Under the pieces are notes generated by a model that did no database searches, was not told where the DNA came from, and saw only the letters and a program-made list of their open reading frames with translations. A DNA stretch of 64,000 bases from Candidatus Woesearchaeota archaeon. GTDB lineage: Archaea; Nanobdellota; Nanobdellia; Pacearchaeales; GW2011-AR1. Every line of letters begins with the position of its first letter. Position 1 is the stretch's first letter. The stretch lies in NCBI GenBank assembly GCA_964606775.1, contig CAZSGW010000001.1, positions 24,002 to 88,001 on the forward strand, written 5' to 3'. Positions 1 through 64,000 of the stretch are shown in pieces. The position numbers were made by a program, and so were the translations under genes.

Positions 1-3000
1 GGGTAGGCACCATCAATAACGCCCTCATTTGAATAAGAAGATAAATCTTTAACAAGCGTGCTATTCTCTCCCAAAGAAGAAACATTATCAAAATTCATAA
101 ATAATTTTACAGTTTCATCATAAAAAGTATAATTTATTCCATCAAAATCCAATATAGTACTAGTTAGATTAGAAGCAGAAATAGAAGCATTAATTTCAAA
201 AAAATCATAGATTATATTTTCATTATCTGAAGGAGTAGGAGAAACAAAACTTATATTTTGATCAACAAATGAAAGGTTATATGAAAATATCATCTCTCCA
301 GGAAGAGAAAATTCTCCAGTTTCACGAGGAACATTTGCTTCTTGGGCATCATTACTACTTCCTAAACTAATTACAGATCCCTCATTTAAAGCAGTGTTAA
401 GATTCAAAATCAAAGTACTCCCACCAACAGACGAACTAGTAATATTCGAATCAGTTAAAACAATTCCTCCATCAACAATTCTCCAACCTTCAGAACCTGA
501 ACTCACATTCAAATTTTTATCAAATTCCAAAGTAATCTTATTTGAACTTAAATCAAATTGCGCACTCTGAATTCGGGGACCTCTCTCAAAACTTCCACCA
601 TAATAATGAGTGGATAAAGCAGCCCACCATCTATCTGCAAATTCCTGTAATTGCTCGTCTGTCTTAAAATGCAAATTATCTGGAAGTAAACCAATATCAT
701 AAGTAACGGGACCATATTTAACATTGGAATTTTCATCCCATAATTCCTGTTGAGCCTTTCTTATATTATCATTGGTTGTCCTATTTCCGTTTGGTTGATG
801 ATCTATCTGACCCACAATAACCGCATCAGCATTCAAATCAGAAATTAAATCATCCGTAAACTGACTCAAATTATTTTTAAAACAATCATAATTACCATAA
901 CAGCCTGCATCAGTTCTTGCATCTCTCTCACCTTGAAACCAAATAACTGCTTTTATTCTTCTAGTACCTCCTGTTGCCTCATCAATTTGATCCACTAAAT
1001 GATCATAATATGAATCTCCTCTTTGCCATTCCAAAATTGAAGAACCTCCTGCAGCTGCGCTAATATATCCAATAGGGATTCCAGTATTTTCAACCAAATG
1101 ATTTGCCAAAAGAGGCCATGAACTTCCATCACTTGAAGTAGAATGAATTGGATCATTCGCAATCTTCCAAGCATCATCTTCTCGATAAACAGTCGCGTTT
1201 ATTCCAAGAGAAGTATTATAATTCTGTAGATTATAACCTGTCATTCTCGCATTTGATTGACCTGAAATCGCATACAAATCTCCGATACCAATCTGTTCAA
1301 CAGAATCCACAATTGAATTATTATTTGAAAATCTAACTTCTAAAATTCCCTGGCCCACACTCTGATTAGTCAGATTACCTTCAAAACTCCCTCCATCCGG
1401 AGAAGAAACAATTTCACTCCAATCTCCTCCATTAAACCTTGCCTCAATAGTGCTGGGATTCCCAGTATAGCTTCCAGAAATTGAAATATTAGATTTATTC
1501 TCTGAATCCCGCTGAACAATGGTATATTTAACCGGAGTTGAAATAGTGATAGTTCCTGAAACAGACTCTGTAACATTTCCAACATTAAGCGTCCTAATTT
1601 CGGTAGAAATCAAATTATTTAAAGAATCTCTCGCATAAATAGAATAATTATACGAAGTATCATTACACAAATCCTGAACATTTGAATAAAAAACCCAATT
1701 AGTAGAATCATATTTATACAAATTAGAATAATAATGTTGTTGAAGTTCCTCTTCGCTTATTGCCTTTTTATGTATTGCTAAATTATCAATATTTCCACCA
1801 AGATAATATTCGTTAGCAAAGGTCTCATCTCGAATATAACCAATCTTAAAATTATCACTTGAAGAAATATCTGTAGCAGAAGCAGAAGAAATGTCTTCTG
1901 TATAACTCAAAACACCATTCTTATAAAAACTAATATTCCCATCTCTATCTGCAATAACTGCTATATGAGTCCACCCATCTGAAGGAAGAAAACTCAAACC
2001 AGAAACACTGCTCGTGTCAATTGCATCACTCTCCGCTCTTAACCTTATTTTATTTCCTGAAGATGTTGCAGTAAAAAACAAGCCAAATCCCTCTGCATCA
2101 AAAGTTCCCTTAGATAAAATACCATTAGGTCCTGAATCATCAATACTTCTATTAACCCAAAACAGAATTGAAAAATCATTAGTCCCAAAATTCAAATCAC
2201 CTTCATCTTCAACATCAACATGATCATCTGTAGCATCAAGATAAACGGAATTCCCATATTTACCTGACTCGATAAATGCTCCATTTTTTAAAATCCCCTC
2301 ATTCGTCAAATTAGTCAAATCTTTAACAAGCGTGCTATTCTCTCCCAAAGAAGAAACATTATCAAAATTCATAAATAATTTTGTATTACTATCATAAATA
2401 GTATAATTTAAATCATTCCAATTAAAAATTAATTCATTTAACTGTCCAACATCTGTTGTTGCATTTATCTCAACTGAACTTTCATTGATAGTATCTCCAT
2501 CGCTAGGAGTGGGTGAAACAAACGAAATAGAATGATTAATACCCGAATAAGTTATACTAACATTATAAAGCAAAGGAAAATAAGAAGTATTCTCCGTTTC
2601 AAAAAGTCCCTTATATTGGATGTATCGATTATCAGTCAAGCTTAAATTTTGAGAAGAAACGTCATTAATGTCTGTCCAAGATTCGCCAGAACAAGAAAAA
2701 TCATCACAGCTCCTTACAGAAAAATCGATCGAATTTATACCTCTTCTATACAAACCACTAACTTCGGACTGAGAAAGAGATTTATTCCACAAAGAAATTT
2801 CATCAATAAATGCATTTAAATCTTGGTTATTTAAGGCCGTATTCTTACCTACTTTTATAACAGCATTTCTATCGTCATCTCCAGTAAAACCAGTATCAGT
2901 ACCTTGATTATCCACTTTAACAGAGTCCAAATAAATAGAAATACTTTCATTTCCAACACTTCCATTCCAAGTTGCAACAATCGAGTGCCATTCACCATCA

Positions 3001-4754
3001 AACAAATCAGTCGAAGAAGTTTCCCTCTGAATACTTCCCCCGTTACCAAATTTTGTATAGTAAATTTTCCCAGTACTTTTATCCGCAGAAAAATACCATT
3101 CTGTCTCTCCAAGATTGTCATACTTACTAATCAAATCCATCAAAACACTTGAAGAACCATTATCTTTGAACCATAGATGAACACTGAACCCTCCGGGATT
3201 ATAGAATTCAGAATCATCCTCAATTTGAAAATAATCTGTCTCATTAAAATAAACTGATTTATTGAACCTTCCTTCATACGAATAATCAACACCGTGATTA
3301 GTTGCATTATTGCCATAACCAGAATAATCAATAAAATTCCCACTCTCTTCATTTAAATGCAAGAGCAAAATATTATCTTCTAAACCAGAATCTAATTCTC
3401 CCATAGGGCTGGATATCCAAGAAAAAATATCCCACGAGACAAGAGAAGTTGCATCAAAAACCTGACTCAAGAATAATCCGCTAGAAGAATTTAATTCAAG
3501 AGCATCAACCGAATTATTAAAACTAACATTCATTAAAGTTCCAGAAAGAAAACTATATCTTGTACTTCCTTCGTTAATCAAATATGTACCTGAATCACCT
3601 TCTGTAACAAGTTCACTATAATCAACACTCACATTATAAAGTTTAGGGATATAATTTACATTAGGGGTTGTAAAATTGAACAAATATTGAAAATACCTAT
3701 TATCACTCACGCTTAAACTCTGAGGAGAACTATCACTCACATCAATCCAAGATTCGCCAGAACAAGAAGAATCATTACAACTTCTCACCGATAAATTAAG
3801 TCTTTGTATACCTCTTGCATAATGCTCTCCAATTTCGTCCTCGGATAAAGTACGATTATAAACAACAAACTCGTCCATATCTCCATCAAAAAAATAATCC
3901 TTATCTCCGGCACCATTAATAATATACCCTAAACTAAAATTATCGCTTGATGAAATATCTGTAGTAGAAGCAGAAGAAATATCTTCTATATAAGTCAAGG
4001 AAGCATTTTTATAAAAACTAATATTCCCGTCCCTATCTGCAACAACTGTAACATGCGTCCAACCATCAGAAGGAGTAAATGAATAAGTTCCATCAGCAGG
4101 ATCAGTGGGAGCATCAATAACATCACTCTCCGCTCTTAACCTTATTTTGTCTTGGCCAGTAAAAAACAATCCAAATCCTTCCGCATCAAAAGTCCCTTTT
4201 GAAGTCAAACCTTGCGTCCCAGTACTATCTCTTTTAATCCAGAAACTAATAGAAAAATCATCGGTTCCAAAATTTAAATCCCCACTATCATTTATACTAA
4301 TTAAATCATCCGAACCATCAAAACCAATTGCAGAATTTATTTGACCCTCTTGATTGTACAAAGCACCGTTATAACTTCCATTATTTGAATTACTTGAATA
4401 ATCTATTATTGTTCCAGATTGTTCATTTAAATGCATAAGTAAAATATTTCCACTTAATCCAACATCAAACTCTCCGTCATCACTTCCCCACAAAATAGAG
4501 CTCCAAGTTGAATTCTCTCCTGCATCAAAAATTTCACTAGCATAAGAACCTTTTAAAAAACTAGAATTCAAAACAACCGCGTTAAAAGTAGAATTATAAG
4601 AAGTGTTCACATAAATCCCATTTTCAAAATCAGATTCAGTATTATCCAAAAAATTTCCCGCATAAACAGATGTAAGAAGTAAAACAAAAAGCAACAAAAA
4701 AACTAAATTATATTTATGATTAACAAAGAACTTCCCAGATTTATCAAACAACAT
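1..4754 (-). CDS. Giant secreted modular surface protein, 5' part only (ATG at 4754..4752; runs off the window at position 1, >1580 aa): signal peptide, at least 3 LamG/ConA-like lectin units and an embedded SASA/SGNH-type carbohydrate O-acetylesterase domain
   Basis: Manual translation of the minus frame (codons starting at coordinates = 0 mod 3) is open from 4754 down to 1. It is missing from the ORF track because there is no stop in the window, and all listed minus ORFs here are in a different frame. The N-terminus MLFDKSGKFFVNHKYNLVFLLLFVLLLTSVYAGN is a signal peptide. Recurring motifs GDLNFGT(D/N)DFSI(S/L)FW(I/V) and FSVRSC(N/D)D(S/F)SCSGESW..DNRY.QY fit LamG_3/ConA-like units of about 370 aa. 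Region about 1380..540 encodes ..AISGQSNARM..GSSWPLLANHL..AAAGGSSILEWQ..AVIWFQGERDA..LPDNLHFKTDEQLQEFADRWW, i.e. the GQSN and W(F/Y)QGE motifs of the sialate O-acetylesterase (SASA, PF03629) family. Codon-by-codon checks were done at 1..62 and 840..1380. Confidence 0.6.
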   Translation of the reverse strand, partial: MLFDKSGKFFVNHKYNLVFLLLFVLLLTSVYAGNFLDNTESDFENGIYVNTSYNSTFNAVVLNSSFLKGSYASEIFDAGENSTWSSILWGSDDGEFDVGLSGNILLMHLNEQSGTIIDYSSNSNNGSYNGALYNQEGQINSAIGFDGSDDLISINDSGDLNFGTDDFSISFWIKRDSTGTQGLTSKGTFDAEGFGLFFTGQDKIRLRAESDVIDAPTDPADGTYSFTPSDGWTHVTVVADRDGNISFYKNASLTYIEDISSASTTDISSSDNFSLGYIINGAGDKDYFFDGDMDEFVVYNRTLSEDEIGEHYARGIQRLNLSVRSCNDSSCSGESWIDVSDSSPQSLSVSDNRYFQYLFNFTTPNVNYIPKLYNVSVDYSELVTEGDSGTYLINEGSTRYSFLSGTLMNVSFNNSVDALELNSSSGLFLSQVFDATSLVSWDIFSWISSPMGELDSGLEDNILLLHLNEESGNFIDYSGYGNNATNHGVDYSYEGRFNKSVYFNETDYFQIEDDSEFYNPGGFSVHLWFKDNGSSSVLMDLISKYDNLGETEWYFSADKSTGKIYYTKFGNGGSIQRETSSTDLFDGEWHSIVATWNGSVGNESISIYLDSVKVDNQGTDTGFTGDDDRNAVIKVGKNTALNNQDLNAFIDEISLWNKSLSQSEVSGLYRRGINSIDFSVRSCDDFSCSGESWTDINDVSSQNLSLTDNRYIQYKGLFETENTSYFPLLYNVSITYSGINHSISFVSPTPSDGDTINESSVEINATTDVGQLNELIFNWNDLNYTIYDSNTKLFMNFDNVSSLGENSTLVKDLTNLTNEGILKNGAFIESGKYGNSVYLDATDDHVDVEDEGDLNFGTNDFSILFWVNRSIDDSGPNGILSKGTFDAEGFGLFFTATSSGNKIRLRAESDAIDTSSVSGLSFLPSDGWTHIAVIADRDGNISFYKNGVLSYTEDISSASATDISSSDNFKIGYIRDETFANEYYLGGNIDNLAIHKKAISEEELQQHYYSNLYKYDSTNWVFYSNVQDLCNDTSYNYSIYARDSLNNLISTEIRTLNVGNVTESVSGTITISTPVKYTIVQRDSENKSNISISGSYTGNPSTIEARFNGGDWSEIVSSPDGGSFEGNLTNQSVGQGILEVRFSNNNSIVDSVEQIGIGDLYAISGQSNARMTGYNLQNYNTSLGINATVYREDDAWKIANDPIHSTSSDGSSWPLLANHLVENTGIPIGYISAAAGGSSILEWQRGDSYYDHLVDQIDEATGGTRRIKAVIWFQGERDARTDAGCYGNYDCFKNNLSQFTDDLISDLNADAVIVGQIDHQPNGNRTTNDNIRKAQQELWDENSNVKYGPVTYDIGLLPDNLHFKTDEQLQEFADRWWAALSTHYYGGSFERGPRIQSAQFDLSSNKITLEFDKNLNVSSGSEGWRIVDGGIVLTDSNITSSSVGGSTLILNLNTALNEGSVISLGSSNDAQEANVPRETGEFSLPGEMIFSYNLSFVDQNISFVSPTPSDNENIIYDFFEINASISASNLTSTILDFDGINYTFYDETVKLFMNFDNVSSLGENSTLVKDLSSYSNEGVIDGAY
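43..108. repeat. 66-bp exact direct repeat, copy A (copy B at 2317..2382; period 2274 bp) inside the giant gene
   Basis: aaatctttaacaagcgtgctattctctcccaaagaagaaacattatcaaaattcataaataatttt is identical at both positions, and the flanking sequence is similar but diverged. Confidence 0.9.
2317..2382. repeat. 66-bp exact direct repeat, copy B (copy A at 43..108)
   Basis: Same 66-mer as at 43..108. A further diverged repeat relationship lies between 2014..2223 and 4105..4344 (offset about 2091 bp), visible as two similar antisense ORFs in the ORF track. Confidence 0.9.
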
Positions 4755-4925
4755 TTTCACCTCTAAAAAAGAAAAGAAAAATAGTATTTAAATGTTAAGA
4801 TTAACAACGACAAAGTAACAAAATTTTAAAAAAAATCTCCACAAAAGTTTTATTTTTAAATTCAAAATATACAAAAAATTTCCTGTATGAAAAAAATACT
4901 AAAAGAAAAATCAAACAAATAAAAA

Positions 4926-54508: not shown

Positions 54509-55024
54509 ATGAAAGCAAAAAAAGGCATAACAATAACAATAATAATTCTGGTATTAGTTACAAGTATTTTTCTAATTTCAAGTAACGAGGAAAATCAAAA
54601 ATCAACTTCAAAAACAAAAACATCTTCTGAAACAAAACAGGAAAAAACAAAACCTTCAAAAGTTCCATTAACAAATTCTGAGAAAGAAAAAATAGAAGAC
54701 GCATTACTGTCAAGCCAATTCATCAAAGACATCCCAACAAAAAATCCAATTTCAATAAGATTCTTCTATTTCGAAAACGGCTCAAGAATTTGGCAAGATA
54801 GATTTTACATGGCTGATGGAGAATTAATTGATAAAACTTCGACAGGAATAGAAATAATAATCCACTCAAAATACATAGAAGATTTAGGAACAAAAGAACT
54901 TTGTTCAGTTATACAAGATGCAAGAAACAAAGGGGATTTAGGCACCGAAACAGAATACAGTCAAACAAAATTAGCTTGGAAATACAAAGGCATGCTAAAA
55001 CACAAAGCTTGTTTTGGATTATAA
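54509..55024 (+). CDS. Membrane-anchored hypothetical protein (171 aa)
   Basis: N-terminal TM, Ser/Thr/Lys-rich linker, and a C-terminal globular domain. Confidence 0.4.
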   Translation: MKAKKGITITIIILVLVTSIFLISSNEENQKSTSKTKTSSETKQEKTKPSKVPLTNSEKEKIEDALLSSQFIKDIPTKNPISIRFFYFENGSRIWQDRFYMADGELIDKTSTGIEIIIHSKYIEDLGTKELCSVIQDARNKGDLGTETEYSQTKLAWKYKGMLKHKACFGL

Positions 55025-55921
55025 CTCAAAACTCTCTAAATCTTTCACAACCTTCGAATTTTCAAAAATTTCTTTAGCCTCATTCTCAATTTTTTCCATA
55101 TTATTCTCATACCTGCCACTAATATGTGTTAAATATAATTGTTTAACCTTCGCCTTCTTTGCAATCTCTCCTGCATCTTTAGAAGTTAAATGCCTATATT
55201 CTTCGGCTTGCTCTTGCAATTCACTTCCAAAAGTAGATTCACAAACCAATAAATCAGCATCTTTAACAAAGGGAACAATTTTGTCATTCATTTTAGTGTC
55301 TAAAACAAAAGAAATCTTTTTACCTTCTTCAACATAAGTTAAATTTTTTGAGCTATATTTTTTACCCTCATGAACAACATCCTCTCCATTTTTCAATTTT
55401 TGTAACAATGGACCTGCAGGAATACTCGTTTTTTCCAACTTCCCCTTATCTATTCTTCTCTGTTCTTTAACTACAAAATTATAAGCATTACAAAACGTTC
55501 CATGGTTCATCTTTTCACATTCTAAATAAAAATCATCATTCTCAAAAAATCTTCCCGAAACATCCTTAACTGCCAAATTATGATCTGCAACAAATTTAAA
55601 GGCATCTAAGATTCTCCCAATATAATCCTCAGTATATTTTGGACCATGAATATACAGTTTTTTATTATACTCGCTTAGAGCAAAAGTCTGCAAAATTCCC
55701 GGAATTCCTAAAATATGGTCTCCATGCCAGTGAGTAATCAAAATGCGGCTAAGTTTTAAAGGATTCAAACCCGCTTTCCTGAATTGTCTCTGAGTTCCTT
55801 CTCCACAATCAATCAAAATATTCTCATCTTTATATTGCAAATAAATCGCAGTATGATTTCTCTTTGCAGTTGGCACTGCATCTCCAGTTCCTAAAAAAGT
55901 TAATTTTATTTTTTCTGCCAT
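55019..55921 (-). CDS. rnz: Ribonuclease Z (tRNA 3' endonuclease, MBL fold)
   Basis: ILITHWHGDHILG (HxHxDH); 300 aa with RNase Z-like termini. Confidence 0.8.
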   Translation of the reverse strand: MAEKIKLTFLGTGDAVPTAKRNHTAIYLQYKDENILIDCGEGTQRQFRKAGLNPLKLSRILITHWHGDHILGIPGILQTFALSEYNKKLYIHGPKYTEDYIGRILDAFKFVADHNLAVKDVSGRFFENDDFYLECEKMNHGTFCNAYNFVVKEQRRIDKGKLEKTSIPAGPLLQKLKNGEDVVHEGKKYSSKNLTYVEEGKKISFVLDTKMNDKIVPFVKDADLLVCESTFGSELQEQAEEYRHLTSKDAGEIAKKAKVKQLYLTHISGRYENNMEKIENEAKEIFENSKVVKDLESFEL

Positions 55922-56378
55922 TATTTAATTAAATAATTAGAATATTTAAAACCAACGATACTGTATATAAAACGTTGTGAATAGAAGCAGGAATTTTGAA
56001 TTTCCCGAAAAAATGATTAGAGGAAGGGATTTGGTTTTAGAAGAAAGTAAGCAATGTTTTATTATGCATTTTCCCAAACTCCATCCTCTTTTCCCTCATA
56101 ATTCGGCCATCTTTGGCTGTTGAATTTTATGTAAAAACTCGTCATACTGATTTGAATTTTCCATATAAGAAAAAACCTTCAACATAGAAGCAATTAAATC
56201 ATTGTAAGTTTGCCTAGGATATTCTTTAGCATTCTTCAATATTTCAAATTAATCTTTTTATCCAGAAGTATTGTTAATTGTTCCATTATGTATTGACTAT
56301 GTATGCACTAGGTATAAACTTTTTCAAAGTTCCAACTAATTCAAACTTTTGATACGCGGAAAATAAATAAAAACGCAA

Positions 56379-56636
56379 CTACTCTGACTTCAAAGCTGTC
56401 GAAGCCGGAGAAATATAGATGATTGTGTCACCTCTCAAAAAAGTTAAGCCCAAATTTTTCTTAACTTCTCCGTTTTCCATTTGTTTTACATTTTCCAACA
56501 CTAAATTAATGTGGATATCAAAAGCCAACAAAGTTCCAGTAAACTGCTTGTCACCCTTCAAGGTAACCAACACTTCTTTTCCTTTAGAGTTGTTCAACAA
56601 ATCCAAAGGTCTTTCAATTCCGTTAGCCATAACCAT
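56379..56636 (-). CDS. lsm: Sm-like archaeal protein (SmAP/LSm)
   Basis: Sm1 ..KEVLVTLKGDKQFTGTLLAFDIHINLVLENV.. and Sm2 ..FLRGDTIIYI. The true start is probably the Met in MANG. Confidence 0.8.
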   Translation of the reverse strand: MVMANGIERPLDLLNNSKGKEVLVTLKGDKQFTGTLLAFDIHINLVLENVKQMENGEVKKNLGLTFLRGDTIIYISPASTALKSE

Positions 56637-56742
56637 ACGGAGTACATTTTGTTTTTAAACATTTCCATTCCGAAAAATAATAAATAAAAATTTTAAAAAA
56701 CAAGATAAAAACATTTATAAACAAAATTTCAATTCCTCTAAC

Positions 56743-57102
56743 ATGAAGCTCGGAAAAAAACTAACCGGTGGAAAGTACATTAAACGAAGAAAAATGAAGA
56801 AGTACGAAAGAGCTGGGCAAAAGACAACCACAAAATTAGGGGAAGAAAAAAAGAAAACAAAAAAAACAAGAGGTGGAAACAAAAAGACACGAATATTGAA
56901 AGGAAAAATAATCAACATTAAAGATAAAGACAAGATAAAAAAAGCAGAAATAAAAAATGTTATAGAAACTCCTTCAAACAGATTCTTAGCAAGACAAAAT
57001 ATTCTAACAAAAGGAACAATTATTGAAACAGAATTAGGAAAAGCAAAAATAACTAACCGTCCAACCCAACAGGGAATGATTAACGGAATTTTAGTTGAAT
57101 AA
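56743..57102 (+). CDS. rps8e: Ribosomal protein S8e
   Basis: ..TGGKYIKRRKMKKYERAGQKTTTKLGEEKKKTKKTRGGNKKTRIL.. matches the archaeal S8e pattern. Confidence 0.75.
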   Translation: MKLGKKLTGGKYIKRRKMKKYERAGQKTTTKLGEEKKKTKKTRGGNKKTRILKGKIINIKDKDKIKKAEIKNVIETPSNRFLARQNILTKGTIIETELGKAKITNRPTQQGMINGILVE

Positions 57103-57155
57103 TTTTACTTCTCAAGGATGATGATATAAACCGAAACCTTTTTAAACGCAATTCC

Positions 57156-57164
57156 TTTTTAAAT
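57156..57164 (+). promoter_or_regulatory. TATA box (tttttaaat) about 25 nt upstream of the tfb ATG
   Basis: Position and consensus. Confidence 0.35.
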
Positions 57165-57184
57165 CTTACGGAAAAGTTCTAAAA

Positions 57185-58120
57185 ATGGCTTCAATAAAAA
57201 AGTGTCCAGAATGCGAAAGTATAAATTTAACTTACGATTCACACCTTGGAGAAATAATTTGCAATGATTGTGGATTAGTTGTTGAAGAAAAAATGGTTGA
57301 TACAGGTATTGACCTTTCTGGAAAATTTGATAAAACAGAAAAAAAAGGTCGTGGTGGAGCTCCAATTTCAAGACAAAAATTCGATCAGGGTCTAACAACC
57401 AATGTAGGCGAAATATCAGATATTTACAAATTAGACCCAAAACAAACAAGAAAATTCCTAAGGTTAAAAAAATGGCAAGAAAGAGTTTCAACCTCAATTG
57501 AAAGAAATCTAAGACTTGCTATGGCTGAATTAAGAGTTATTTCTTCTTATTTACATCTTCCAAACGTAGTTAGAGATGAAGCTTCAAGAATTTACAATTA
57601 TGTCCTACAAAGAGGTTTAGTTCGTGGAAGAAGTATGGAATCTGTAATCGCAGCTTGTTTATACGCCGCTTGTAGAAGTTACAATATTCCAAGAACTCTC
57701 GACGAAATGGCAACAGCATCAGATGTTGAAAGAAAAGAAATAGGACGAACATACAGATTCATAATAAGAAAATTAGGCATCAAAGTAAAACAATCCTCTC
57801 CAAAAGATTACATCTCAAGATTTTCTTCTGTACTAAAACTATCTCCAAAAACTCAAAACGAAGCATTAAAATTATTGAAAGATGCAGACAAAGTTGAACT
57901 AACATCTGGAAGAGGGCCAGCTGGAATTGCAGCAGCAGCACTTTACGTAGCAGCATTAATGAATGATGAGAAAAAAACACAAAGAGAAGTTGCTGATATT
58001 GCAGGAATAACAGAAGTAACAATTAGAAATAGATATAAAGAATTAATTGAAAAATTAGAATTAGAAGAAAAAATAAAACAAAAAGAAGCTGAATCAAAGA
58101 AAAAGAAAAAAGAAGAGTGA
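57185..58120 (+). CDS. tfb: Transcription initiation factor TFB (TFIIB)
   Basis: N-terminal Zn ribbon CPECES..CNDCG, B-finger, and two cyclin repeats. Confidence 0.9.
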   Translation: MASIKKCPECESINLTYDSHLGEIICNDCGLVVEEKMVDTGIDLSGKFDKTEKKGRGGAPISRQKFDQGLTTNVGEISDIYKLDPKQTRKFLRLKKWQERVSTSIERNLRLAMAELRVISSYLHLPNVVRDEASRIYNYVLQRGLVRGRSMESVIAACLYAACRSYNIPRTLDEMATASDVERKEIGRTYRFIIRKLGIKVKQSSPKDYISRFSSVLKLSPKTQNEALKLLKDADKVELTSGRGPAGIAAAALYVAALMNDEKKTQREVADIAGITEVTIRNRYKELIEKLELEEKIKQKEAESKKKKKEE

Positions 58121-58235
58121 TTAATTTCTCCGAATTATAAAAAGAAACTTATTGAATCTCTAAAAAGTAAACTTTTCAAAAACAAAAATCTAAAAAGACT
58201 AAACTTTTTATAATCTAATTATCTGAAATTTTTAT

Positions 58236-58319
58236 GCGGAGTTGCCGGAGCGGTCAAACGGGACGGACTCAAAATCCGTTGGCTCAGTGCCTACGTAGGT
58301 TCGAATCCTATACTCCGCA
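58236..58319 (+). tRNA. tRNA-Leu (anticodon CAA), class II with long variable arm
   Basis: GCGGAGU/ACUCCGC acceptor, anticodon loop CUCAAAA, variable arm UGGCUCAGUGCCUAC, T-arm GTAGG-TTCGAAT-CCTAT, discriminator A. Confidence 0.85.
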
Positions 58320-58426
58320 TAAATAAGATAGATTCGAAGCCTTGGGTTTCGTTCATTTGAAAAATGAAAGACGTAAATAACTTGTTTCTTTGCATCGGTG
58401 AAGAATCTTTAGATTGCTTCAGCGAC

Positions 58427-58467
58427 GTAGGTAACTTGATTACCTGCACGAATCCTATACTCCGCAT
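58427..58467 (+). other. Partial duplicate of the tRNA-Leu 3' portion (acgtaggt + 16-nt insert aacttgattacctgca + cgaatcctatactccgcat)
   Basis: A 19-nt exact match to 58301..58319, plus an 8-nt match to 58293..58300 of the upstream tRNA, interrupted in the T-loop; followed by a T6 run. Confidence 0.5.
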
Positions 58468-58546: not shown

Positions 58547-59110
58547 ATGGATAGAAGAAAATTTCTAAAAGAAATTGCAATGTCAATGACAGGCATATGT
58601 ATTTTTCCTATGACAAGTTTTAATTGGAAATCAGATATAGAATATGATAAAGATATAATAGATGTAAAAAAAATTTTCAGGAATAAAATTGCTTTCAGAA
58701 AAACATCCAAAAATGAGTTGGGAATGGAAGCATTTTATTGGGACAAAAAAATAGAAAAACAATTACAAGAAGATAACTTCTACAAACCCAAAGGAATATA
58801 CTCTCCAAAAAAAGTAAGAAAAAATGAAAAAACGATAAATGAATTAGAAATATTAACTACCGAATCCACAGGTATAAAAGAAGAAAGAGACCGAGCATAT
58901 GTTTGGGGTTGGAGACCCTTAAGCTCTGAGGACAAATATGGAATTTTTGACAAAGAATATTACCTCTTTGAAAAAGAAAACGAAGAAAAGAAAATGAATT
59001 TTTATTTAATTCCTAAACAAAATTCAACAACAAAAAACCTGACAAAAAGAAAAAGTACCCTCATAACTTCAGAAAAAGGGATTTATGAATTCATCAAAAA
59101 TGAACATTAA
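58547..59110 (+). CDS. Hypothetical secreted protein with twin-arginine-like signal (MDRRKFLKEIAMSMTGICIF)
   Basis: RRKFLK matches the Tat consensus (S/T)RRxFLK, followed by an h-region. Confidence 0.4.
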   Translation: MDRRKFLKEIAMSMTGICIFPMTSFNWKSDIEYDKDIIDVKKIFRNKIAFRKTSKNELGMEAFYWDKKIEKQLQEDNFYKPKGIYSPKKVRKNEKTINELEILTTESTGIKEERDRAYVWGWRPLSSEDKYGIFDKEYYLFEKENEEKKMNFYLIPKQNSTTKNLTKRKSTLITSEKGIYEFIKNEH

Positions 59111-59522
59111 GATGATGAAATTTTCTCTCATCCCAAACGCCATCTAAATCATAATCTATATATTCTATAACTTCTTTATCACTTTTATAAAAATATTTGG
59201 ATTTTCTAAAAATATTTCCTTCGGAATTGTAAGAATCTACTGAACAACGAGGAAGGCGTGAATTAGAACATTTCTTAACTTCTGTAACATCCAAAGAACC
59301 ATTAGATGAATAATCAATTCGCTTAATTTCATTCAAACTATCACTAAAATAAATAGCCATATCTCTCATCCTATCGTTATTACAATCCTCATAAAGAGTA
59401 TCAACAGAATAACCTCCATCGAAAAATTCCTCAGGACTTGGAACCTGGGCATTAACTTTCCCAACAGATAACTCCAAAAACAAAGGCAATCCAAAAAAAA
59501 TATTTTTACAAAGAGTTTTCAT
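59094..59522 (-). CDS. Small secreted Ca-binding-motif protein, paralog 1 (142 aa)
   Basis: Signal peptide ending GKVNAQVPSPEEFFDGG; D-x-D-x-D-G-like motifs (DYDLDGVWDE, DYSSNGSLD). Confidence 0.45.
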   Translation of the reverse strand: MKTLCKNIFFGLPLFLELSVGKVNAQVPSPEEFFDGGYSVDTLYEDCNNDRMRDMAIYFSDSLNEIKRIDYSSNGSLDVTEVKKCSNSRLPRCSVDSYNSEGNIFRKSKYFYKSDKEVIEYIDYDLDGVWDERKFHHLNVHF

Positions 59523-59540
59523 TTTAAATCCAGAAACAAA

Positions 59541-60020
59541 TTATCGGCCAAATCGATGATAAAGTGTGTTACGCGTTATTTTGTCCCACTCACCATCACC
59601 ATCATTGTCATAATAAGTTAAATAAATAGATTTATCGTCCTCAAAAGAAATTCTTTTTTCTTTTTTATGACTTAATAAATTTCCATTAATATCATATTTC
59701 TTTACAACTTCAAGAGGTGTCCGTCCAGATGTAAAAATAATTACATCAATATCTCCATCACCATAGTAATCAACATATTCAATCTTATCCGGAGAAAAAT
59801 CATAACCAGCACGAAGTGCTGTAACTTCATCATTCCCTATTCCATTCCCATTCATATCCGCAGAATAGTTTTCAGTATAATACTTGCCATCCTGAAAAAA
59901 TTTCTCTGGAGTAGGCATAGGCTCCTGAGCATTAACTTTTCCAATCAATAAACTACCTACTAAAGCTGTTCCCAAAATTAATTTTCTACCTAAATTTTTC
60001 ATATTATTTTTAAGAATCAA
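59541..60020 (-). CDS. Small secreted protein with three dockerin/EF-hand-like D-x-[DN]-G-[DN]-G motifs, paralog 2 (159 aa)
   Basis: Signal peptide ending GKVNAQEPMPTPEKFFQDG, then DMNGNGIGNDE, DYYGDGDIDV and DNDGDGEWDK. Confidence 0.5.
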   Translation of the reverse strand: MILKNNMKNLGRKLILGTALVGSLLIGKVNAQEPMPTPEKFFQDGKYYTENYSADMNGNGIGNDEVTALRAGYDFSPDKIEYVDYYGDGDIDVIIFTSGRTPLEVVKKYDINGNLLSHKKEKRISFEDDKSIYLTYYDNDGDGEWDKITRNTLYHRFGR

Positions 60021-60060
60021 AACTTTATAAATCTTTCTATTTGTAACTATTTAATAGTAA

Positions 60061-63000
60061 CTAAATTGAATCCGCAATTATTCCTTTCATAACACTTAAA
60101 TCATTTTTATTTGATTCAAGTCTACTCGCAACTTCTCCACTAAAAACCTCTTTAGAAACATAATACTGAATAAATACATCAACATCAAAATAATCTTGTT
60201 GTACAAAAGGGCTTTCTAAAACAGCCAAAGAACATTTAAGAGAATCTACTTCATCATCACAACCAGACAAACCAGCATTCTCGCTTTTATCTTTAATTTC
60301 TAGAATATTAAGCAAATATTTCATTGTCAATTCCTGCTTATTCAACAACTGATATTCTGAAGTAGAAATAACGTCACTCTCTCTTAAACTATTTAATAAA
60401 TACATATTTTCAATTATTTCATCTTCAAGTTCAGGGAACCCTTTTTTAACTTCTAAAATAGCCAAATTAAGATTCAAGCTACTTTTAGGTTCCAATGCCA
60501 AATAACCCTCTCTCTCAGCAATCGCTTTTCTAACTTCAATCAAATTCATTTCACCCTTCTCAATTTTTTTACACTTATCATCTTTCCAAATTTCCCACCA
60601 AGATTTTTTAAACAAAGGACCTTCATTAGAACAAATCTTTCTATTAATTATTGTTTTGAATTCAGCACATCCCCAATTGGCATCGCTTCTATCATTCAAA
60701 TTACAAGTATAATACATTCTATAACCAATCTGTCCATTAATCTCGTTAATATCATCAATAAGTCTATCCAACCTCTTAAAAGAACTATCTACCTTTTCAA
60801 ACTCTTCCAAAGTTTCAGAAGTTCCTAATTGTTTTTCCTCCAAAATTTTCCTTATCTCTAAAATATTAAAAGTGGCCTTATTCTCAAAACACTTTTCCGA
60901 AACAGAAGATGTGAAACCACTTCCAGAAGTTTCAGAAAAACAATAATTTCCTTTAACCAACTCACTTTCAGCCTCAGTAATAGTCACTCCTGATTTTTCC
61001 TCATCTTCCTTAATCTTATATTCTATAACACTCTCAAAAACTTCTTCTTCAACCAAATCATTAACTAACACTCTAAGCTTAGAATTAGTTAAATAATAAA
61101 CATCTTCCAAATTTTCTCCCTTGAATTGAAGTTCACTAATAAGGTTATTGATATCCTCTAATCCTTGTTCAATATTATTAAGCTTCTTCTTCTCAATTTG
61201 AATATTTGATTTAACCAAAGGAATTTGTTCCGTAGATTTAACATCTTCCCTTATAGAAACCACTACAACAGGAATTAAGTTATCCCCTTCAAACTCTCCA
61301 AGTGTCCTTTTTTGGATTGCCTTGCTTCCAAAATGCTCAGCAAAAATAAGCCTATCCAAATTATCCCTGCCAAGATAAATCAAATTATGAGTATACCTAA
61401 CTTTAGATTTTTTACCAGTTCCCTCTCCACATGACAACCTATCATCTTCAGGATTTTTACTAGATGCTCCAGGATTATAAGCACTACCAGGCCAATAAAC
61501 CCCTACAATCATTCCAGGTTTTAATTTTCCTTGCTCTTCCAAATTAGAAAGCATCTGAATACCATCATCCCTTAACCTATAAAAATCTGTCCGAGTTTCA
61601 CTCAAAGAATTAACTCCCACTGATTGTATCTCCTCATTTATTGCAACAAGCTTATCTTCAGCATCATTATCTACATCAAACAAATACCAAACTCTATCTC
61701 CATAATCCTCTAAATGTCTGCACCAAGCATTAACCCAACTAACTTTATCTCCAAATAAATTCAAATACAATCTAGAAACATAACCAGAACATCCTCCTAC
61801 TTCTTGTCCAATAAACGGAAGAGACTCTTGATTTTTCAAAATTTCCTCCAATAAAACATCCTTCTCAGAAATTTCCACCCTAAAACAAGGCGACCAAATT
61901 AACTTAACAGGATGCTCATCCAATAAATCATAACTTTTCAATTCAAATTTCTTATTATTCCCTCCAGGAAAAGAATAAACAAATGCAATTCTTTGTTGCT
62001 CATCTTTCCATTCCTTAAAAATAACATTATGTCCTCTAGTAGGAGAAGTATCGCTATAAACTTCAAGCATATCTCCCTTTCGAATTACACTAAAAACATG
62101 TTTGCCTGAATATTCTTTATAATTGTCCAGTCTTTTTCTAATCTCTTTATTATTTTCATTTTTCCATTTATAATTCTTAAAGTATGAATTCTCAAAAGTC
62201 AAATCTTGTCTATCATACCAAACACCATATGGATTAGCTCCCGCTTCAGCATAAATGCTTTTAACCCCATCATAACAACTAAATATAGATTCATCATTAT
62301 CATATTCTGAACTACAGCCCAACTCTCCAGGAATTTTTCCAGAATCAACAAAACTCTGAGCAGTTTCTATGATTTTATTTCTCATCTCTCCAGATTCACA
62401 CCGTAATTCATAAGTATCGCCACTATTTTCATCAACCAACCTCTTTGTCAAAGAAATTTTATAAGCATTCAAAGCCAAAACCCCGTGAGCATTTCCTCTT
62501 AAAAAAAGCAATTTAGCCTTTTGTTTATCCCAGAAAACTTTGTCAATTATATTATTAATTTTAGCAATCTGAACGCCAGGAGTTTTTTCAGTATTATCTT
62601 TAATATTATCTATTGTGCTCTTGAATTCCTCTTCACTTAAGTAATCTTCTTCACTCAACAGAATATCTGAATAATGTTTTCCTAAACCTTGCAAACTATC
62701 ATCCGCTAAACCTTCAATATTCTCGCCACCGCTTTTAGCAAACTCTCTCAAATTAGGAGAATCTATAACATCTTTAACACTCTCTGTATCTAACCAACAC
62801 TTAATTTTTTTATCTCCACAATAACCAACCTGAACCCAACGAGAACCATTCTTAGCAGCATTAGGATCAGTTCCAATACCAGGATTTTCAGTAGCACAAA
62901 TTCTTGTAATTCCTTTATTATAAATTTCAGGGTCAGCAAAATCTCCAGCTGTCTCCTGAACATTCAAACCCGAGTCAAGCAAGCTGTAAAAACTGGGAGT

Positions 63001-64000
63001 TCCAGAAATACATTCTGCTTCAGAACTTATATCTTTCTGTGAAGCTTGCTGATTAACATATTCGTCAGTAATGTAATTTTGTGCAAAGGAAGTTGATACT
63101 TCCTTAAATCCACATTCCTCTTGACCATTAACAACTATGCACATTTCATCATATCCTGAAGGAGCAGTAAAATCAACACTCTGAGATTCATAATCTCCCG
63201 TAGGAACATAACCCGAATCAACTATCTTCGAATAAGCAGTATCCTGAAAATAAGTACTCGAAGGAGAACCTTTCAAATAAACCCTATAATAAGATCCTCT
63301 ATCGTTTCCAGCATAAATATGGTAGAACACCTTATATTGCGAAACAGGAGGATTAGTTGCAGTGGTGTAAGGTATTTCTTCAAATCTTCCGTGAAACTGA
63401 GACGGAGAATCAGGTTCGGTGAGTGCATCTAAGAAATCCATTGCATTAGGATAAGCAATAGAAGAGTACGCTTTACAAATAGTCCCGCCTGCCTCTTCAA
63501 CAGAACGTGCCTTAAAAGCCTTGTATGAATTAGAGGCATAACTTTGCGTAAAGAAATTCATTGATTCACTTGCAGTTTGCCACGCATTCTGAACTCCCAA
63601 ATATTCTCCACCCCCTCTAACGTTCTGTCCTAAAAGAAGAGAAATAACTTTTGGAACACCTACCTTAACCAAAGGAATTCCTTGTCTCCATAAAAACTCA
63701 CACATATAAATACTATGAATCTGATCACAAATACCAACCGTTCTTCCAGTTTCCAAATTCTCTTGTAGGCAATCCCTATAAGATTCCTTAACTGCAATCC
63801 ACCCATCAACTCCTGCATGCAATCCAGACAAACAAACAGGAACATAAACTTCCCCGCCAAACGCTTTAAAATTAGGTAAACATAATGCTAAACTTCCAAT
63901 AATTCCAGACTGAACAGGATCACTAACAGGGTAGGCTCCTCCAAAATCACATCTCGATGCAGGACAAATTACAGGGTCACAAACATTAAACAAAAGTTTA
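60061..64000 (-). CDS. Giant Cys-rich extracellular protein of unknown function (>1310 aa; N-terminus beyond the window)
   Basis: The ORF-track start at 63993 is a TTG with no upstream stop before the window edge, so the gene continues beyond the window. Many Cys pairs are present; no recognised catalytic motif. Confidence 0.55.
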   Translation of the reverse strand, partial: KLLFNVCDPVICPASRCDFGGAYPVSDPVQSGIIGSLALCLPNFKAFGGEVYVPVCLSGLHAGVDGWIAVKESYRDCLQENLETGRTVGICDQIHSIYMCEFLWRQGIPLVKVGVPKVISLLLGQNVRGGGEYLGVQNAWQTASESMNFFTQSYASNSYKAFKARSVEEAGGTICKAYSSIAYPNAMDFLDALTEPDSPSQFHGRFEEIPYTTATNPPVSQYKVFYHIYAGNDRGSYYRVYLKGSPSSTYFQDTAYSKIVDSGYVPTGDYESQSVDFTAPSGYDEMCIVVNGQEECGFKEVSTSFAQNYITDEYVNQQASQKDISSEAECISGTPSFYSLLDSGLNVQETAGDFADPEIYNKGITRICATENPGIGTDPNAAKNGSRWVQVGYCGDKKIKCWLDTESVKDVIDSPNLREFAKSGGENIEGLADDSLQGLGKHYSDILLSEEDYLSEEEFKSTIDNIKDNTEKTPGVQIAKINNIIDKVFWDKQKAKLLFLRGNAHGVLALNAYKISLTKRLVDENSGDTYELRCESGEMRNKIIETAQSFVDSGKIPGELGCSSEYDNDESIFSCYDGVKSIYAEAGANPYGVWYDRQDLTFENSYFKNYKWKNENNKEIRKRLDNYKEYSGKHVFSVIRKGDMLEVYSDTSPTRGHNVIFKEWKDEQQRIAFVYSFPGGNNKKFELKSYDLLDEHPVKLIWSPCFRVEISEKDVLLEEILKNQESLPFIGQEVGGCSGYVSRLYLNLFGDKVSWVNAWCRHLEDYGDRVWYLFDVDNDAEDKLVAINEEIQSVGVNSLSETRTDFYRLRDDGIQMLSNLEEQGKLKPGMIVGVYWPGSAYNPGASSKNPEDDRLSCGEGTGKKSKVRYTHNLIYLGRDNLDRLIFAEHFGSKAIQKRTLGEFEGDNLIPVVVVSIREDVKSTEQIPLVKSNIQIEKKKLNNIEQGLEDINNLISELQFKGENLEDVYYLTNSKLRVLVNDLVEEEVFESVIEYKIKEDEEKSGVTITEAESELVKGNYCFSETSGSGFTSSVSEKCFENKATFNILEIRKILEEKQLGTSETLEEFEKVDSSFKRLDRLIDDINEINGQIGYRMYYTCNLNDRSDANWGCAEFKTIINRKICSNEGPLFKKSWWEIWKDDKCKKIEKGEMNLIEVRKAIAEREGYLALEPKSSLNLNLAILEVKKGFPELEDEIIENMYLLNSLRESDVISTSEYQLLNKQELTMKYLLNILEIKDKSENAGLSGCDDEVDSLKCSLAVLESPFVQQDYFDVDVFIQYYVSKEVFSGEVASRLESNKNDLSVMKGIIADSI

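Follow-up and report, generated by a model that had tools for sequence, protein, structure and literature searches.

The view of Pacearchaeota and Woesearchaeota as organisms living on bacteria is based largely on an SLT domain in some of their giant proteins, and to our knowledge no member of either group has been cultivated and no host has been identified. The giant protein family in question, fam00969, was reported by Castelle et al. 2021 and proposed to bind and degrade bacterial cell walls, i.e. a role in contact with the walls of other cells has already been put forward for it (PMC8204110), and much the same view was taken by Vigneron et al. 2022 (PMC9723730) and in a 2024 mBio paper (PMC10936187). 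Here, we report on positions 58,547 to 64,000 of a stretch of 64,000 nucleotides (nt) from a Candidatus Woesearchaeota archaeon (contig CAZSGW010000001.1, positions 24,002 to 88,001), the whole of which is called the window in the following. What this region contains is the 3' end of a surface-protein operon, which is chromosomal and vertically inherited and belongs to a DPANN archaeon of the Pacearchaeota/Woesearchaeota type. The explanation that we favour on balance is that its main gene codes for a giant of fam00969 which carries two NlpC/P60/CHAP-like modules instead of SLT, and that this gene is followed by two orphan FG-GAP-like secreted proteins and by an exported protein resident in the downstream slot. 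All assignments of function at the locus are predictions. Nucleotide positions are given in window numbering and amino acid (aa) numbers of the giant refer to the full-length protein.

The first-pass annotation of this DNA had noticed a Cys-rich open reading frame (ORF) of more than 1310 aa on the minus strand. This ORF is present, and its frame continues without a stop codon up to the final base of the window; therefore, the 1310-aa ORF with its TTG start is the in-window part of a longer gene, the TTG at 63993 being merely the first start codon within the window. The extension beyond position 64000 that had been proposed as a check was obtained by an exact-sequence look-up with one of the small downstream proteins (paralog B, see below), which led to a 10.2-kb Logan contig, L001, that is identical to the window end in reverse complement and reaches 3.7 kb further. 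The complete giant gene lies at L001:858-8513 and codes for 2551 aa, of which the window covers aa 1240-2551. The N-terminus has the features of a Sec-type signal peptide, MSSKKILIGIVFIFGILLFGSLVSA, with cleavage before NY, and is the sole strongly hydrophobic segment of the protein, which we thus take to be Sec-exported. The description as Cys-rich is borne out by 30 Cys in 1312 aa (2.3%), about twice the 1.06% found in the other window ORFs of at least 150 aa. These residues are concentrated at aa 1230-1339, where the first Cys of the cluster falls on the window edge; the cluster region holds 11 Cys in about 110 residues, many of which are invariant across 30 homologues. The parts of the giant that lie in the window are the following, all of them on the minus strand:

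60061-64000, minus strand: giant ORF, C-terminal 1312 codons (aa 1240-2551) plus stop codon; frame open to the window edge
62467-63999, minus strand: in-window part of the giant scaffold (aa 1240-1750), defined by homologue coverage
63397-63999, minus strand: invariant Cys cluster region (aa 1240-1440); the region begins at aa ~1224, beyond the window
63097-63399, minus strand: beta-sandwich of the giant (aa ~1440-1540), from the structural model
61879-62346, minus strand: module D1 (aa 1791-1946), predicted papain fold, NlpC/P60-like; candidate triad Cys1814/His1896/Asp1905
62275-62277 and 62029-62031, minus strand: D1 candidate residues Cys1814 and His1896, respectively
61216-61869, minus strand: module D2 (aa 1950-2167), predicted papain fold, CHAP-like; candidate triad Cys1976/His2110/Glu2127
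61789-61791 and 61387-61389, minus strand: D2 candidate residues Cys1976 and His2110, respectively
60064-61215, minus strand: C-terminal tail of the giant (aa 2168-2551), common to the closest homologue only

A search of 5.8 billion proteins returned at least 367 homologues of the giant with E = 0 and lengths of 1900-3600 aa, 119-120 of which were listed and underlie the family statistics given here. Their sources are labelled Pacearchaeota, Nanoarchaeota or 'archaeon', and also Woesearchaeota, and when each species was represented by a single genome, relatives were detected in 508 species genomes, under the labels Pacearchaeota, Woesearchaeota or Nanoarchaeota. All 119 of 119 listed homologues cover a scaffold extending from aa 1 to about 1750 with 40-65% identity, and in this conserved, disulfide-rich part, invariant Cys, Gly, Pro and aromatic residues number in the dozens. 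Past aa ~1750, only 20-35 sequences still align as far as aa 1950, and fewer than five do so after that. The giant has in common with fam00969 the homology of the scaffold, the signal peptide, a size of about two to three thousand aa and the restriction to Pacearchaeota and Woesearchaeota (labels of 80 loci), and there is no Pfam match to SLT (PF01464) anywhere in its 2551 aa. Since SLT is found in only about 16 of the 120 listed relatives, it is a cassette option rather than a universal feature of the family. Judged by its sequence, the giant is thus a member of the known but uncharacterised giant cell-wall-hydrolase family of Pacearchaeota and Woesearchaeota.

In the precomputed annotation of the listed homologues, the Pfam domains at the C-termini are almost all murein hydrolases, comprising Peptidase_M23, glucosaminidase, VanY, Amidase_3 and DUF1615 in addition to SLT, with leucine-rich repeat, ankyrin, Hint and beta-helix modules occurring occasionally. 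Our own Pfam rescans of two relatives, P0099 and P0051, gave SLT, Amidase_3 and M23 above the cut-off, and the glucosaminidase match of P0077 reached 27.7 bits, just under the cut-off of 30.2 bits. The M23 domain of P0051 lies inside the scaffold (aa 675-765) and a second cassette site therefore exists in the N-terminal half; in P0008, this internal site is occupied by a D1 module (aa 683-849).

In the giant itself, searches of Pfam, NCBIfam and PDB sequences gave no match, neither for the variable part (aa 1750-2551) nor for the rest of the protein. The earlier statement that the giant has no recognisable domains is hence correct at the level of sequence searches; it does not hold at the level of predicted structure, where two NlpC/P60/CHAP-like modules become apparent. 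A BLAST search against the family revealed that both modules recur at shuffled positions in relatives. D1 is found in 48 of the 120 listed relatives, often as the last domain, sometimes in two copies and once at the internal site, and D2 in seven of the 120. In D1, Cys1814, His1896 and a D/N nine residues after the His (1905) are invariant in 24 of 24 sequences, and in D2 the same is true for Cys1976, His2110 and an E/Q 17 residues after the His (2127) in six of six sequences. An AlphaFold2 model was made of aa 1040-2200 from an alignment of 36 sequences, with a mean predicted local distance difference test (pLDDT) of 62. In this model, both modules have a helix with the Cys at its N-terminus and, after it, a sheet with the His in one of its strands, the 10-residue mean pLDDT across the two modules ranging from about 42 to 89. 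The predicted structures have the papain-like alpha+beta fold, and at least 20 of their top 60 matches are of the NlpC/P60/CHAP kind, including PlyGRCS, T. vaginalis NlpC1, CwlO, the CHAP domain of LysGH15, MepS, RipB and the diffocin hub-hydrolase. Among sequence profiles, the lone hint is Amidase_6 with E = 0.075 in one of 11 sequences. An hhalign comparison of D1 with D2 was not significant, though the GD...HN region was aligned in register. We consider it fairly probable, on the strength of the models and the invariant residues, that D1 and D2 are two papain-fold modules and probably murein peptidases.

The same fold would be compatible with a role that does not involve lysis, as transglutaminases and pseudomurein endoisopeptidases have papain-fold domains, too. 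The giant would then be an S-layer-like or adhesin scaffold, in which D1 and D2 are non-catalytic binders or transglutaminase-like cross-linkers acting on the envelope of the archaeon itself or on that of an archaeal host (pseudomurein, S-layer). This alternative would account for the giant gene belonging to the core of hundreds of genomes, with one copy in each and conserved synteny, and for about three quarters of the listed homologues having no recognised hydrolase domain; the domains that are recognised in relatives are the murein hydrolases described above. It would also agree with the statement, made in PMC11291902, that all cultivated DPANN archaea have archaeal hosts. We regard a purely non-lytic envelope protein as unlikely.

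Apart from these two modules, the model contains a well-modelled beta-rich domain with a long helix (aa 1040-1224), a beta-sandwich at aa 1440-1540 with a pLDDT of about 80 and a helical segment at aa ~1680-1760. For the scaffold, Foldseek searches of PDB and BFVD gave no significant PDB or viral structure match, the hits being weak Ig-like folds or noise, and for the Cys cluster region neither a structural nor a sequence relative was found. The tail aligns only with P0002 among the listed homologues (65% identity overall), and only its first ~30 residues are part of the model, where they are helical, the helix starting at model residue 1119. By eye, the tail (aa 2168-2551) contains the look-alike stretches NILEIRKILEE, NLIEVRKAIAE and LLNILEIKDK, each of them behind a pair of Cys, which suggests an internal repeat of about 100 aa.

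The chromosomal surroundings of the giant are conserved. In two long contigs and 80 genome loci, the order of genes is a gene for a protein of about 610 aa, the end of which overlaps the start of the giant, followed by the giant and a convergent TFIIB gene; the latter is found downstream of the giant in nearly all loci with enough DNA. The genes beyond TFIIB are S8e, LSM and RNase Z in the two long contigs, and the same neighbours are present in the window at 55019-58120; the window genes at 37-54 kb are housekeeping genes. Due to this conserved synteny with housekeeping genes, the giant is a chromosomal gene that was inherited vertically and is not carried by a mobile element; an origin from a virus or a mobile element was rejected on the same ground.

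The ~610-aa protein is encoded directly upstream of the giant in 83 of 86 loci, the remaining loci having no upstream DNA. Its N-terminus is near-invariant across the orthologues of the 86 loci, [KR][GA]Q[VLI]T[IVL]FIIIAI, and is, as far as can be told from these residues, an archaeal class III (type IV prepilin)-like signal; no Pfam model matches the remainder of the protein. An example of such an orthologue is found at L003:8178-10004. The protein is likely the obligate partner of the giant, and we infer that the scaffold and this pilin-like partner jointly extend the cassette outwards from the cell surface. Directly upstream of the partner gene, a conserved ORF of 43-44 aa (MKKYLLLIEDEKLWKKFKE...) was observed at L003:8051-8185, L004:577-711 and L005:8021-8152, which is possibly a small regulator. 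Two metagenome-assembled genomes titled 'bacterium', L072 (DAITPU010000001.1) and L073 (DAIQOR010000003.1), contain the archaeal partner-giant operon with TFIIB downstream and are probably mislabelled DPANN bins. A second giant ORF, referred to earlier as the LamG giant, is located at 3-4787 on the minus strand and runs off the left edge of the window; it comprises at least 1595 aa and begins with a signal peptide. In L005, a Laminin_G_3 protein of 1692 aa is encoded 5 kb upstream of the giant operon; the LamG giant and the hydrolase giant may be loosely linked in some genomes.

Between the giant and the housekeeping genes, the window contains the following features:

59541-60020, minus strand: paralog A, 159 aa from TTG or 153 aa from the ATG at 60002; signal peptide ending in VNA, with cleavage before Q; three DxDGDG-type loops
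59094-59522, minus strand: paralog B, 142 aa, 4 Cys; one strict DxDxDG loop and one degenerate loop
58547-59110, plus strand: convergent ORF of 187 aa, here called RR-ORF; N-terminus MDRRKFLK followed by a hydrophobic stretch
58235-58320, plus strand: tRNA-Leu(CAA); landmark between the giant operon and TFIIB
57185-58120: TFIIB gene, beyond tRNA-Leu

The gap between the giant stop codon and paralog A amounts to 40 nt and that between paralogs A and B to 18 nt, and the 3' ends of RR-ORF and paralog B overlap by 17 nt. The two paralogs are probably co-transcribed with the giant. The first-pass annotation was accurate in describing them as two small secreted paralogs: they are 31% identical (E = 2e-18), and both have a signal peptide ending in GKVNAQ and, after it, the stretch P.PE.FF.DG, so that the common leader reads GKVNAQ..P.PE.FF.DG. 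The three loops that it had quoted, DMNGNGIGN, DYYGDGDID and DNDGDGEWD, are all found in paralog A, and the loop of paralog B is DYDLDGVWD.

What had been concluded from these loops, namely that they are a dockerin/EF-hand signature, was not supported. The underlying proposal was that the paralogs are dockerin, EF-hand or thrombospondin type 3 calcium modules which plug into cohesin-like sandwiches of the giant and thereby build a scaffold on the surface. It has some attraction, as the D-x-[DN]-x-[DN]-G motif occurs three times in the two paralogs and just once in all other window ORFs of at least 100 aa, the paralog genes adjoin the giant in the same direction and the giant contains at least one Ig-like beta-sandwich. 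At E ≤ 1, however, there was no Dockerin_1 or EF-hand match in Pfam for the paralogs and no Cohesin match, and the best match of paralog A was FG-GAP_3 at residues 84-144 (E = 0.019; 16 bits compared to a cut-off of 26.9 bits). The loops of paralog A begin at residues 55, 84 and 138, i.e. at spacings of 29 and 54 residues as opposed to the ~22 residues of the dockerin duplication. The acidic residue of EF-hand position 12 is missing, this position being T in DNDGDGEWDKIT and I in DYYGDGDIDVII, the latter with Y at position 3, and the segments that come after the loops are hydrophobic and resemble strands (DGDIDVIIF). An AlphaFold2 model of paralog A, made from the alignment of the two sequences, consists of the signal helix and eight strands without any helix-loop-helix, albeit with low confidence. 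On the side of the giant, the search for cohesin-like sandwiches that had been suggested gave no cohesin signal: the fold matches of the beta-sandwich were of the ApaG/ASF1 type and generic Ig-like (Foldseek).

Relatives of the paralogs are scarce. Both are singleton clusters, and a word-index search with paralog A returned only paralog A. An exhaustive HMMER search with a profile of A and B against 1.84 billion representatives gave the two proteins themselves and nine weak matches with E-values from 2e-7 to 6e-4. Eight of these nine were scanned with Pfam, whereby four contained FG-GAP or FG-GAP_3, two an EF-hand repeat and two neither; therefore, the common element is only the generic DxDxDG loop. 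A few of the weak EF-hand repeat matches also match Dockerin_1, which counts in favour of docking. The paralog profile found nothing in the 85 other loci with a giant homologue, elsewhere in the window or inside the giants, and the paralogs are thus not a conserved partner of the giant. Taken together, a cohesin-dockerin-like scaffold appears highly improbable to us. Going by the model and the sub-threshold match, the paralogs are best described as lineage-specific, secreted accessory proteins, predicted to be beta-rich and to have FG-GAP-type putative Ca2+ loops, and not as dockerins.

The arrangement of two modules and two paralogous small exported proteins immediately downstream could also be taken as a toxin-immunity system, in which the paralogs are the cognate inhibitors of the two papain-like modules. 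The model for this is provided by the Tae/Tai amidase effector-immunity pairs of the type VI secretion system in bacteria, and the lineage specificity of the paralogs would parallel that of a variable cassette. Such an immunity role is very unlikely because relatives with D1 (L003/P0035) or D2 (L005/P0071) have no such genes downstream. In addition, a murein hydrolase poses no threat to an archaeon that has no murein of its own, and no co-variation of the paralogs with the modules was seen in any available genome.

The remaining ORF starts with MDRRKFLK and converges on the paralogs, as had been noted before. The giant and TFIIB are separated by 215-2700 bp in relatives, and in many of these the interval is occupied by a tRNA-Leu together with an ORF that is convergent and has an export signal. 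Nine of these ORFs, located in the same slot in the same orientation (L009, L012, L013, L022, L043, L060, L062, L083 and L085), form a family. RR-ORF has the most conserved motif of this family, [ND]FYLIPxK, followed by IY, and it scored 12.9 bits against the hidden Markov model (HMM) of the family, exceeding 2000 of 2000 shuffles. It has no lipobox Cys, and no close relatives were found in the JGI metagenomes, from which one spurious high-GC match, L087, was returned. RR-ORF probably codes for a divergent member of a fast-evolving family of exported (lipo)proteins.

With regard to export by the twin-arginine translocation (Tat) pathway, MDRRKFLK fits RRxFLK with D in place of S/T, and the next ~20 residues are moderately hydrophobic (Kyte-Doolittle value of 1.45). 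RR-ORF had no match to PF10518 or to the Tat-signal models of NCBIfam, and the ORF of L083 matched TAT_signal with E = 0.26. No TatC-like ORF was found in the window or the fetched loci (1.5 Mb) with an approximate E. coli TatC sequence as the query. The use of Tat in Pacearchaeota-type DPANN archaea is apparently undocumented in the searchable literature. Two of the nine syntenic ORFs, at L062:17100-17330 and L083:8716-9528 and both on the minus strand in locus orientation, begin with SRRDF[IL] and then have a lipobox Cys, which corresponds to a signal of the Tat-lipoprotein type.

The last 18 nt of tRNA-Leu(CAA) (CGAATCCTATACTCCGCA, 58302-58319) are repeated 129 bp downstream at 58449-58466, just before RR-ORF, and this direct repeat looks like an att-type scar of integration or excision; there is no third copy in the window. 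It raises the possibility that a mobile element integrating at tRNA-Leu brought in the paralogs and RR-ORF, which would then be functionally unrelated to the giant, in line with the content of the giant-TFIIB gap varying across genomes and the three genes being orphans. We consider this quite unlikely. The two copies of the repeat are just 129 bp apart, and the three genes do not lie between them. An integrase was not observed, the GC content is uniform, the paralogs follow the giant in its own direction at short distances and RR-ORF resembles the family that is resident in the slot.

The explanation favoured here, i.e. a fam00969 giant with two papain-fold modules and accessory genes behind it, can be put together as follows. 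Sequence-based prediction gives an export signal at the N-terminus of the giant, of both paralogs and of RR-ORF. After its export, the giant would be retained at the cell surface, probably along with the pilin-like partner, and its distal modules would cleave the murein of an adjacent bacterium at peptide stems or amide bonds, thereby giving the archaeon attachment or access to this bacterium. The paralogs would act as accessory factors beside the giant, and RR-ORF would be a divergent copy of the rapidly evolving exported (lipo)protein resident in the slot. Of the earlier proposal of a cell-surface system of an episymbiont, exported proteins of a DPANN-type archaeon are retained, and the cohesin-dockerin and calcium-dependent docking part is given up.

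Several results speak against this explanation or parts of it. D1 and D2 gave no match in Pfam, PHROGs, NCBIfam, three hmmsearches against PDB and an hhalign comparison with a CHAP domain, and the Foldseek top 50 for the giant model contained no NlpC/P60/CHAP folds, only weak Ig-like ones. The most conserved stretch of the family, the Cys cluster region at aa ~1224-1440, is helical in the model with a pLDDT of only 25-47, and the model of paralog A reaches a pLDDT of 49.5. Of the partner, only the last 286 codons are available from the source genome (L001:1-861), its N-terminus lying beyond the available DNA. The family HMM misses RR-ORF at E ≤ 1 in a normal search. Bacterial murein as the target is suggested by analogy, from the domains of the relatives and from published hypotheses, and we know of no host of any Pacearchaeota.

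A bolder version would be that the pilin-like partner and the giant form a lineage-wide, cassette-swapping, bacteriolytic surface weapon. D1 and D2 would then be active murein peptidases, the Cys-rich core (aa ~1224-1440) a new domain penetrating walls or membranes and the paralogs Ca2+-dependent targeting subunits. We put this forward as a speculative and rather improbable extension. If it was true, cell-wall attack and the dependence on, or predation of, bacteria would be far commoner in the clade than the annotation of SLT suggests.

The architecture of scaffold and cassette, the strictly linked pilin-like partner and the D1 module are apparently undescribed in the searchable literature. 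The previously unannotated D1 is present in about 40% of the close relatives listed, and SLT in about 13%. Should D1 and D2 be active, a re-evaluation would be needed for genomes that were considered to have no peptidoglycan hydrolases, an example being the chimney Pacearchaeota that were reported to lack a murein transglycosylase (PMC11537232). As both modules are small enough to be expressed and tried on sacculi, the hypothesis of an archaeon living on bacteria becomes directly testable. The dockerin-like motifs that had drawn attention to the locus turn out to be generic Ca2+ loops in two orphan proteins.

Comparison with known systems places the paralogs closest to FG-GAP/VCBS repeats, with which they share the best, though sub-threshold, match of paralog A, the succession of loop and hydrophobic strand, the spacing of ~54 residues and the beta-rich prediction; in contrast to these, they have two to three repeats in ~120-130 mature residues, which are too few for a propeller. 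With the cohesin-dockerin system of the cellulosome, they have in common only the generic D-x-D-x-D-G Ca2+-loop motif and the extracellular location, whereas the family match, the F-hand helices and the right spacing are missing in the paralogs, no cohesin match was obtained for the giant and the paralogs are not conserved as its partner. D1 and D2 were compared with a set of NlpC/P60 (MEROPS C40) and CHAP proteins consisting of CwlO, MepS, RipB, C. difficile Acd24020 and the CHAP domains of LysGH15 and LysIME-EF1; they differ from this set in that they have no detectable sequence similarity to the curated models and that D1 contains long, Cys-containing insertions between Cys and His. Compared to the known description of fam00969, the giant has the same scaffold, taxonomic range, size class, extracellular signal and chromosomal neighbourhood, but instead of a Pfam SLT domain it has two predicted papain-fold modules that are invisible to Pfam, and a tail. 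With systems that combine a delivery part with an exchangeable enzymatic 'warhead', it shares a conserved scaffold and a cassette that varies between lineages, and the analogues of the bolder version are polymorphic effectors and tailocin hub-hydrolases. The giant differs from such systems by being archaeal, Sec-exported and accompanied by a pilin-like partner, with no recognisable secretion-system or immunity genes, and its cassette modules are predicted to target a polymer that the producer itself lacks.

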